From Escherichia coli (lineage in GTDB: Bacteria > Pseudomonadota > Gammaproteobacteria > Enterobacterales > Enterobacteriaceae), in the NCBI RefSeq assembly GCF_003334815.1, contig NZ_QOWO01000014.1: a DNA stretch of 64,000 bases. One strand, written 5' to 3'. Below, one piece after another: positions 60,601-63,600 of this stretch. The number at the start of each line of letters is the position of its first letter. The first letter of the stretch is position 1. Made by a program: the position numbers.

Positions 60601-63600
60601 TAAACGGCAATAGTGTAAATAATGATAGTATAGCTATCAGCGAAATGCTATTTGACATTATTATGCCCTGATAACCAAGAATGAATCTCTACGCCCAATT
60701 TATCATCCACTTCAACAAGTTCGCCATAGCCAGTTAGCGCGCCATTTACACGTATTTCTATATTTTTCTCAGATTCAGAAAGCAGAGATATTATTCTTTT
60801 TGCACAGAGTTCGTCTATTTCATATAGATTCATTATTTTCTTACCAAGAACAAACTCAATTTTTACAGGCAAGTCTTCAAAACTATTAATCATCTGATCG
60901 TCATTTTCATCATAAATCTCACTCTCGTTTTTTTTGATATCAAAATCATCTGTTTCAAAATCTTCCTCGTACTCAAAATGATCAGCCATTTTTAACTCCT
61001 CTGGATAAATTAAATCACAAATTTTTGTATTATAAATAACCGCATAAGCCAAATTATTTGAGATTAATAAAACATCACCAACTTCAATATCAACAAGACT
61101 TCTGTAACATGTTTTACTAAATCCAATTACAAAATGAATGGAGCAATATAACGATTTTTTGTCTAACGCTGGAGCGTTTCCGTATTGGCAGACTGTGACT
61201 TTATCTAACCAAAGATTCAATTCCCCTGTCCATATTCTTATTAGTGGTTGAGCAGGGCTCAATACTCCATCAAATACTTTACCTACGCGCAAACGATTAT
61301 ATTTTAGTTCAGGATGCTTTAGATTTAACGGGGAACTGGATAAACTGAGGCATTCCCCTATTAACCTTTCCGTTTCTGGCATTAAAGCCATCCCAGCGAG
61401 CTCAGATGAAATTAAGGGAAATATTTCTCCAAGCAATACCCATCCAGACCAGCTGCCACTCTCTTCTGCTATCGGTAGCCATTTAGCACTAAATTCGGGC
61501 ATTAATAATGCAACATCTTCGCCATTTTCTTTCCAATTTTGAAAAGTGGTTTCAAACGTATGAGTGTTTCGATTTACTTTCCTCAGACCGAACATTAACT
61601 TTCATCCTTCTGATCGTTTTCGAATTTGCTTTCATTTTCTTGCTCCTCATAAGGCTGATGTCGTTGTCCTTGTCGTTCATCTTGCTCAGTCAATACCCAA
61701 CGTTGTGCTGTAACTCATTATGAAAACTATTTAATTCCCTCATCATTGATAAGGTTGGACATCTCTTTCAACATGAGAGTCATTGAAGCTTTCGACCAAT
61801 TTAGCGGAATGATAGGGCTTGGCGCTTCATGCAAAGTTCCCGACTTGTGGATATAGTTATAGCTTTCGGGAAGTGCCATTTCTGGTACGCTCCTGCCATT
61901 TGCACCAATCATATTCTCGCCTGTTATTTGGGCCAATGATCTATTCATAAATTGTACTGAGTCATTCAAATACTCTTCTTTTCTTGATTCTTTATAAACA
62001 ATTGCTGCTGATTTTGCATACCATGAGTCAAAAAACCATTCTGCTTCTGTTGATGGAATGAAGCTCTTTTCTCTTTTTGCATGCGAATTTTGATCGGTAT
62101 CGGTTTTAATATCATTGAACCAAAAATTTGCCGACTGATAATTATCCTTCTCGTATCTTTTTATACCATACGGACCTGCTAGTTTTTTAACTATTTTTAG
62201 AACTTGCTCTTTTCTTCTGGTGTTTATCTTTGAAAGATTTGTAGGATAAATAACATTAAGTAAAGCCGCATCGGCTTCTCTGTAATGTTTATCTTTTTCC
62301 AGATAACCTGGGGATTCTCCCCCTAAATCAAGCTGTAACGTTATTCTTTCATAACCTTTATCTATGAGGTGGTTCAACCTCGTTGTTGAAAGAGTTTCAT
62401 CCAGTTCATTGACTTTAGCTTCGCGTAGTAAATCAGAGACAAAAACAGAGTCTTTCTTCGAGAGTAGGTTTGACAAACGTTCCAGTCCAGAGGTCACCAG
62501 TGCAACGGAAGATGTGTTTAATCGGGCATCTTCTTCCCATGCTCAGGAATCTTCCATAACATAGAAATTGGCTTTATCCAGATAAGCAATCAGCAGCGCA
62601 ACCGACTTTAATCGGTCACCTTTTTGCCAATCTTCAGCGTTAATAGTACCAGTGTTGATTGCTTGTATAAGGAGATCAAGGTAAAGACCTAAAGCATCAT
62701 TTTGTTTATGGTTCCACAGCTGCGGCTTGCCTTCTTCCTGCACATCTGCCATCACGGGGGAGTTGCTGTCAAATCGGATATGCACAGCATTCATTTGCAC
62801 GGGAATTCCATCCAGTCGTTTTGGGTTGCTAATGACGTCCTGCATCCGCTTAATCTGGTCGGGCGTAGACATATAATCCCACAGGGTGAGCAGAACCTTT
62901 TTTGCGGCTACACTATTTCCCTGATCTGATACTAATGCCATATAGCCCCATAAACTATCCCTCAACCAGACAGCATCATAGTGGGTTTCTGCCGCTGTTT
63001 TGTCATCTTCGAAAGTAGAAGCAAGAATAAACGTTCCCCAGGGTTTCTCCGTCAACGTTAACTTTCGTGTGTTTTCTGTTAATGTTAGCAATCCTTGAAT
63101 TTCGTCTTTGGTATAGTGGCTCTTTATTTCATTTTGTAATTTGGCTGAGTGAATCAGAAGACGATAATTAGGATACTTATCTGGATTTAACGATAAATAA
63201 CTTTTATCTGTTGCTGCCCCCGTGGAATTAAGAATGTTAAATACAGATTCACTCGTCACTTCTGCCCCTGTCGCCTGGCATGTGCCGCACGAAAATATAC
63301 CAGCGAGCAGAAGAGTTAATGCAGATTTCCCTTTCATAAAATATTCCATCAATCGTTTGTTAAAAGCGTAGATAACCACTTATTTAACAACTTGAAAATA
63401 AGGTGTTTTACCTGGGTTGTTACAAAAGGATTGCATTGCGTAAACGCTTTTTATTTACAACAAAATGGGGAAGTATTACGGCGAAGATAAATTGGAGCGG
63501 GCGAAGGGAATCGAAGTATCGAAGACAATCACTCACTAACCAATTGTTTCTTAAAGGATGATGAATCCTTTTGGTTACAGTTATGGTTACACATTAATTT

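Follow-up and report, generated by a model that had tools for sequence, protein, structure and literature searches.

The glyU end of the second type III secretion system (ETT2) of Escherichia coli carries a gene that is already described in both databases and literature, as pkgA or as ygeQ plus ygeP. The published ETT2 gene list includes ECs3736/pkgA ('phosphorylase kinase and glucoamylase', the b2863 homologue) and ECs3737 (the b2862 homologue), and places ECs3735 (ydcX-like) between pkgA and eivF (PMC3977695). As cited in two later papers (PMC2808357, PMC3977695), Pallen 2003 tentatively proposed the glucoamylase homologue at one ETT2 end as an ETT2 effector, and Ren et al. 2004 documented the mutational attrition of ETT2. 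In MG1655, ygeQ (b2863, 'putative lipoprotein YgeQ') is annotated as a coding sequence (CDS) and ygeP (b2862) as a pseudogene truncated by IS2H, with glyU and actS located beyond ygeQ. In this study, we analyzed the copy of this gene found in a stretch of 64,000 nucleotides from an E. coli genome (contig NZ_QOWO01000014.1 of assembly GCF_003334815.1), hereafter referred to as the window. In the window, pkgA is interrupted by an in-frame TGA codon, and we conclude with high confidence that it is a lineage-specific nonsense pseudogene resulting from simple loss of function.

The gene occupies a single minus-strand frame, which according to the open reading frame (ORF) listing and the translation extends from an ATG at 63337 to a TAA at 61727-61729 (537 codons). 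Its sole interruption is the TGA at 62543-62545, codon 265. An initial annotation, made from the sequence alone, had described two minus-strand ORFs (62546-63337 and 61727-62542) sharing one frame and parted only by this TGA, and translation bears out the description. It had also taken both ORFs for a single gene. Because an intact collinear allele, WP_000676929.1, spans the two ORFs, they indeed represent one split gene, rather than a chance frame or two distinct proteins. This uninterrupted 536-residue allele differs from the window at 26 of 1611 nt (~98% identical). Around the stop, the translation reads ANFYVMEDS-stop-AWEEDARLNTSS, that is, FYVMEDS-stop-AWEEDARL. The parts of the gene in the window are the following.

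61727..63337, minus strand: whole pkgA (ygeQ+ygeP) pseudogene, collinear with WP_000676929.1; its 537 codons count both the internal TGA and the terminal TAA.
62543..62545, minus strand: in-frame TGA, codon 265; ancestral GGA (Gly265), changed by a G-to-T transversion at 62545.
62546..63337, minus strand: N-terminal half, 264 codons, identical to K-12 YgeQ (b2863; exact match to UniProt YGEQ_ECOLI, 'Uncharacterized lipoprotein YgeQ').
61727..62542, minus strand: C-terminal half, codons 266-536 plus stop, without signal peptide; counterpart of K-12 ygeP (b2862), PGAP name 'hypothetical protein'.
63287..63337, minus strand: putative signal peptide with lipobox IFSC (Cys17), a pattern read from the sequence.
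62954..62980, minus strand: YDAVWLRDS motif, codons 120-128, the substrate-binding W-x-R-D region of glycoside hydrolase family 15 (GH15); Y120, W124, R126 and D127 are invariant among 32 homologues, and its aligned counterpart in phosphorylase kinase (PhK) alpha is 'AWVRDN'.
62945-62980, minus strand: YDAVWLRDSLWG, codons 120-131, the longer stretch holding YDAVWLRDS.
62531..62542, minus strand: A-W-E-E, codons 266-269, general-acid motif, now 3' of the stop; W267, E268 and E269 are invariant, and E268 aligns with PhK alpha Glu185.
61865..61867, minus strand: Glu491 in LPESYN, putative general base assigned from motif resemblance; P490, E491 and S492 are invariant.

At codon 265, the window reads TGA and WP_000676929.1 reads GGA. 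Since all the other E. coli alleles aligned (5/5, namely O157:H7, two that have the eiv deletion and two from strains of greater divergence) and E. albertii carry a G at window position 62545, the stop is a derived G-to-T transversion that changed Gly265 to a stop codon. The ancestral codon is thus GGA (Gly), which rules out TGG (Trp), suggested in the initial annotation as a possible source of the TGA.

When 5,426 complete E. coli genomes were searched by megablast with 61600-63500, 5,107 proved to contain the region. Genomes that are ~100% identical carry two RefSeq CDSs, 'protein YgeQ' (264 aa, WP_000676919.1) and a 'hypothetical protein' (249 or 256 aa), whereas those that are ~98.6% identical carry the single 536-aa CDS WP_000676929.1, named 'glycoside hydrolase family 15 protein' by RefSeq. 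The intact 536-codon form is the state in most E. coli with the gene. Among the 3,700 complete genomes having the stretch around the stop, 951, including K-12 and MC4100, match a 91-nt context with TGA exactly, and 1,656 match the corresponding context with GGA exactly. The remaining genomes show other single-nucleotide polymorphisms nearby, and the rows sampled among them were annotated as a GH15 protein. The TGA is neither strain-specific nor an artefact, because 951 complete genomes share it. Hence, the comparison of ygeQ alleles proposed in the initial annotation answers its question on strain specificity in the negative, and reveals instead a stop that is specific to, and fixed in, a large K-12-related lineage.

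Other lineages have lost the gene by different routes. O157:H7 carries an independent 5-bp deletion at about gene positions 559-563 (locus L013, 2643-4248), which explains the split into ECs3736/pkgA and ECs3737 in Sakai. In other strains, pkgA shows truncations or insertions of IS421, IS5, IS1, ISVsa5 or IS2. A dN/dS of 0.085 between the intact E. coli and E. albertii alleles indicates that the intact gene is under purifying selection. Besides the stop, the changes that are private to the window lineage and derived with respect to E. albertii are G180V, A366T and one synonymous site. In an alignment of 32 homologues from many phyla, on which conservation was judged throughout, A366 is kept in 30 sequences and G180 is also a conserved position. 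These private substitutions, small in number, are consistent with relaxed constraint.

Gly265 is invariant in 32/32 homologues, as are W267, E268, E269, R126, D127, R394, D398 and E491. It sits three residues before the catalytic-type Glu268 of the WEE motif. When the family profile is aligned with PDB sequences, Gly265 falls on Gly182 of human PhK alpha and E268 on Glu185, which a cryo-electron microscopy study names as one of two catalytic glutamates (PMC10978961); the D1 domain of PhK alpha has no detectable glucoamylase activity (PMC10978961). Two motif readings of the initial annotation hold in this alignment: the stop lies just before a WEE motif whose three residues are invariant, and the N-terminal part contains a GH15-like Y..W.RDS region with invariant Y120, W124, R126 and D127.

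These positions indicate how the mutation acts. Through the G-to-T change at 62545, a TGA took the place of the GGA that encoded the invariant Gly265, only three codons ahead of the catalytic Glu268, and as a result translation stops after 264 residues, inside the barrel. Such a product is devoid of the general acid, of the presumed general base Glu491 and of more than half of the barrel, and for this reason cannot act as a glycosidase. The downstream 271 codons have neither an export signal nor an evident translation start of their own. Any residual function is presumably absent. Altogether, the stop is derived, invariant residues are lost and no recoding signal was found, which is the pattern of a nonsense pseudogene.

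The nature of the lost enzyme was assessed from the intact protein. In a profile search, the only PDB sequences matched were PhK alpha, with E 4e-7, and PhK beta, with E 9e-5. An AlphaFold model built from the 32-homologue alignment (predicted local distance difference test score 90.1, predicted template modelling score 0.90) is an all-helical barrel that follows a short alpha/beta extension, with low local scores over residues 1-23. Foldseek ranked PhK alpha (E 1.7e-11) and PhK beta (E 3e-10) ahead of 5z3a. The catalytic domain is thus modelled as an (alpha/alpha)6-barrel closest to GH15 structures. The general-acid Glu of W-E-E is present (invariant W267, E268 and E269), but in the window allele it lies 3' of the stop. 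According to the model, the intact protein is a GH15-type barrel of a PhK-D1-like subfamily with an intact acid motif. Two invariant C-terminal glutamates are candidates for the general base, E491 (in LPESYN) and E431; the base is probably Glu491, by resemblance to what we take to be the corresponding GH15 motif. The intact protein would be specific for alpha-glucoside substrates.

The N-terminus of the protein (MKGKSALTLLLAGIFSC; in a longer stretch, MKGKSALTLLLAGIFSCGTCQATG) contains a lipobox-like IFSC with Cys17, which fits the lipoprotein pattern of a basic n-region, a hydrophobic h-region and a lipobox [LVI][ASTVI][GAS]C except for the Phe at -2. E. albertii has VLAC at this position, and other homologues display classic lipoboxes (several LVGC or LSSC), cleavable signal peptides, or no signal peptide. 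Both UniProt and RefSeq name YgeQ a lipoprotein, in agreement with the lipoprotein-type signal recognized by the initial annotation. The intact protein is probably Sec-exported and lipidated, as judged from these patterns.

Several observations weigh against the interpretation of the locus as a dead GH15 gene. In the window, each half still forms an open frame, and in RefSeq the two stand as separate CDSs. Among stop codons, UGA is the leakiest, and termination at UGA is poor in K-12 strains; a trace of full-length G265W protein may be made. Membership of GH15 comes mainly from fold and motifs. The joined window translation does match Pfam PF00723, as anticipated in the initial annotation, but the match is weak (19.5 bits, E 5e-4; 20.7 bits, E 2e-4 for the intact allele); at E<=1e-3 this model is found in 17/32 homologues, with a best value of 2.7e-7. 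A search of NCBIfam returned no model near its cut-off for the protein, and no assay of any enzyme from this subfamily was found in the literature consulted. With only about four lineage-specific substitutions, two halves that are still open are expected by chance. A functional read-through product is unlikely because a bulky residue would then occupy the position of an invariant Gly beside the catalytic Glu. The open halves and the leakiness of UGA would also fit a TGA recoded as selenocysteine or by efficient programmed read-through, with a functional full-length enzyme still being made. We regard this as extremely improbable: the 64-nt RNA that begins at the stop is no more stably folded than shuffles (z -0.14), no Rfam family, including the selenocysteine insertion element (SECIS), was found at E<=1 in 61500-64000, and in K-12 most of the downstream half is gone because of IS2. 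Furthermore, the ancestral residue is an invariant Gly and not Cys or selenocysteine, whereas read-through would put Trp, selenocysteine or Cys there. A selenoprotein or a structured recoding signal was rejected on the basis of this fold score, the lack of an Rfam match and the invariant Gly at the homologous residue. As for an error of sequencing or assembly, its probability is negligible; an identical 91-nt context in 951 independent complete genomes, MG1655 included, already refutes it.

The split might instead yield something useful, either YgeQ as a 264-aa lipoprotein with a non-catalytic role or two halves that reassemble. At least 1,000 contigs carry the 264-aa sequence unchanged, it is annotated as a CDS, and ygeQ is found in a stress-response gene table under 'uncharacterized proteins' (PMC9501238). 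Nevertheless, the fragment ends within the barrel, between helices of the model, and the C-terminal half, without a signal peptide, could not meet an exported N-terminal half. The identity across genomes reflects recent common descent, with only about four derived substitutions, and the lineage has changed the conserved G180 and A366 while other lineages wreck the gene by different routes. We therefore consider useful products very unlikely. A further alternative concerns the intact protein. According to the proposal of Pallen 2003 (cited through PMC2808357 and PMC3977695), it would be a type III effector that ETT2 injects and that targets the glycogen metabolism of the host. The location of the gene within the low-GC ETT2 island, the homology to the D1 domains of PhK alpha and beta, and the recurrence of close homologues beside ETT2-like genes, at varied positions, in other Enterobacterales all fit this idea. 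On the other hand, the E. coli and E. albertii proteins begin with a Sec-type signal and the lipobox Cys17, which would direct them to the periplasm or outer membrane rather than to injection, and several homologues have cleavable signal peptides. In addition, at least 45 homologues belong to phyla where no type III secretion genes are nearby, which points to a family function independent of such systems, and the two citing papers contain speculation only, with no secretion data. An effector role thus appears quite unlikely. Loss of function by a lineage-specific nonsense mutation remains the interpretation that we favor.

Close homologues of PkgA (53-76% identity) in Enterobacterales contigs and in Yersinia lie among ETT2-like genes, at differing positions. 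One is divergent from prgHIJK-orgA on a plasmid-like contig that bears ParA and SopB-type ParB genes (L018), and another lies ~7 kb from hilA-like, iagB-like and ygeK-like genes (L019). In L071, the PkgA homologue is accompanied by a YgeG-like chaperone and by a regulator that resembles EivF (46% identity), and in L073 by an InvH-like gene; in Y. enterocolitica, a tip-complex gene is found ~10 kb away from the homologue. The neighbors of close PkgA homologues (in the set L018, L019, L071, L073 and L004) also include pentapeptide or SopD-like effector-like genes. A gene for a GhoT/OrtT-like hydrophobic peptide, with the motif GLTWPLSL, stands directly 3' of the GH15-like gene in L007, L013, L014, L071 and L072; it precedes the GH15-like gene in L073 and is degenerate in L004. 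The positions of these GhoT/OrtT-like genes are as follows, in the coordinates of each locus.

L007, 11687-11866: GhoT/OrtT-like gene.
L013, 4315-4494: GhoT/OrtT-like gene.
L014, 4322-4501: GhoT/OrtT-like gene.
L071, 8280-8453: GhoT/OrtT-like gene.
L072, 9581-9766: GhoT/OrtT-like gene.
L073, 3144-3317: GhoT/OrtT-like gene.
L004, 11687-11767: GhoT/OrtT-like gene, degenerate.

This neighbor, found in seven loci that span 53-76% PkgA identity and lost from the window, suggests a conserved two-gene module of PkgA-type and GhoT/OrtT-like genes. The module lies beyond eivF in E. coli and E. albertii and beside prgH in L018. No ETT2-type gene was found within 10 kb at the at least 45 homologous loci from other phyla. 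A genome-contig scan of 51 loci, none of them from a named Enterobacterales genome, was used only as a negative control for linkage to type III secretion systems elsewhere. Similarly, the gene neighborhoods of distant homologues (Commensalibacter, Bifidobacterium and a proteobacterial metagenome-assembled genome) displayed no conserved context. E. coli-like ETT2 DNA was seen in two metagenome-assembled genomes, assigned to Flavihumibacter (L065) and Collinsella (L067); the proteins of the former are 100% identical in amino acids to those of the window ETT2 and those of the latter ~80-95% identical to those of E. albertii, and in both cases this DNA probably represents binning contamination. 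Despite rearrangements, the module might stay tied to islands of the ETT2 or Salmonella pathogenicity island 1 type as a functional accessory, a tentative idea that we deem rather unlikely. If true, the accessory role might consist, for example, in remodelling envelope or surface alpha-glucan, and the window copy would be the dead remnant of an accessory. Passive cargo or an injected effector are the alternatives, and the linkage to ETT2-like islands may simply reflect common descent of the islands.

The initial annotation had regarded a glycoside hydrolase in this island as unexpected cargo. This view did not hold, as the gene is a regular ETT2 member (Sakai ECs3736/pkgA plus ECs3737). GC content is 0.38-0.41 across pkgA. 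The gene order actS, glyU, pkgA, the ghoT/ortT-like gene, eivF, and eivG onward is common to O157, E. albertii and a divergent E. coli strain. In the window, a deletion between pkgA and epaO has taken out the ghoT/ortT-like gene together with the genes from eivF to eivJ, the latter for the most part, all retained in O157, E. albertii and others; as a consequence, pkgA abuts epaO. A 120-nt SpaN/EivJ remnant begins 13 nt past the pkgA stop codon. At the other end, the tRNA-Gly fragment reported by the initial annotation proved to be real: it consists of the last 23 nt of glyU (TTCGATTCCCTTCGCCCGCTCCA), 155 nt upstream of the ATG. The two borders of the gene are the following.

63493..63515, minus strand: att-like remnant made up of the 3' 23 nt of tRNA-Gly (glyU); past the fragment, the DNA is unlike the K-12-type locus.
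61595..61714, minus strand: SpaN/EivJ remnant at the deletion junction, from PGAP annotation of identical loci; the O157 match stops at window 61714.

ARAGORN detected no complete tRNA in 60000-64000, and promoter and terminator scans of 61500-63700 gave counts that were not above those of shuffles. Of the DNA beyond the glyU fragment, the part up to ~63613 is common to strains such as SY3626 and D72. An AT-rich repeat array with an 11-nt period occupies 63759-63839, and the segment from ~63860 to 64000 presumably corresponds to an IS10 end. No complete genome in the collection covers at least 80% of 63380-64000. According to PGAP, epaO is frameshifted in identical loci. Between the epa and epr genes, a 97-aa ORF on the plus strand (57470-57763) is 39% identical to an L073 protein with a Pfam InvH match, has relatives in L018 and L019, and is a candidate ETT2 pilotin. 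The notion that YgeQ, in an invH-like position beside eivF, could be a missing pilotin was dropped, as ETT2 has this InvH-like ORF of its own. Divergence between the ETT2 islands of E. coli and E. albertii (L007) is uneven, with 76% amino acid identity for PkgA (dS ~1.9), 47% for EpaO and 96% for the EpaP N-terminus, which suggests a mosaic island history or a separate acquisition.

Our analysis settles an annotation point, in that the RefSeq 'protein YgeQ' and 'hypothetical protein' of K-12-type genomes are halves of one dead GH15-like gene, and pkgA joins the ETT2 genes that have been inactivated several times independently. Its discovery value is otherwise small, as it deals with a known gene and with ordinary decay within the known attrition of ETT2. 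Intact PkgA is among the closest bacterial relatives of the PhK alpha and beta D1 domains, and the activity of the intact protein could inform on the function of both.

When set against the described ETT2 loci, the window shows no substantive difference from the known attrition: ETT2 genes are lost by point mutations, frameshifts, insertion sequences and deletions that vary among lineages, pkgA shows all of these, and it is one further documented instance. The window shares with K-12 ygeQ/ygeP the gene, the locus, the TGA and the position at the glyU end of ETT2. Unlike the window, which retains the whole C-terminal half, K-12 has additionally lost most of that half and the remaining secretion system to IS2. 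In Sakai and other O157 strains, the same gene (ECs3736/pkgA and ECs3737) is split by the 5-bp deletion instead. For enteroaggregative E. coli 042, where the comparison is by description, the literature describes the product of EC042_3075 and reports no ablating ETT2 mutations.

As for the enzymes, the family shares with GH15 members (glucoamylase, glucodextranase, isomaltose glucohydrolase and dextran dextrinase) the W-x-R-D and W-E-E motifs and an R-Y-x-x-D-x-Y-like IKRYEKDNY, all invariant in the PkgA family; we take these motifs to correspond to regions of the Aspergillus niger glucoamylase. In contrast, identity with GH15 enzymes is only 12-16%, the Pfam score is marginal, and PkgA is a single domain of ~510 residues with a short N-terminal alpha/beta extension, lacking both the N-terminal beta-sandwich domain and the starch-binding domain. 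The closest solved relatives, by sequence and by Foldseek, are the D1 domains of PhK alpha and beta (PDB 8jfk). PkgA and PhK alpha have in common D-x-G-x-W-E, which includes both the Gly replaced by the stop (G182 in PhK alpha) and the catalytic Glu (E185). However, D1 forms the N-terminal part of regulatory subunits that are eukaryotic and measure ~1,100-1,200 residues, whereas PkgA is a standalone protein predicted to be exported, and PhK has WER where the PkgA family has an invariant WEE.

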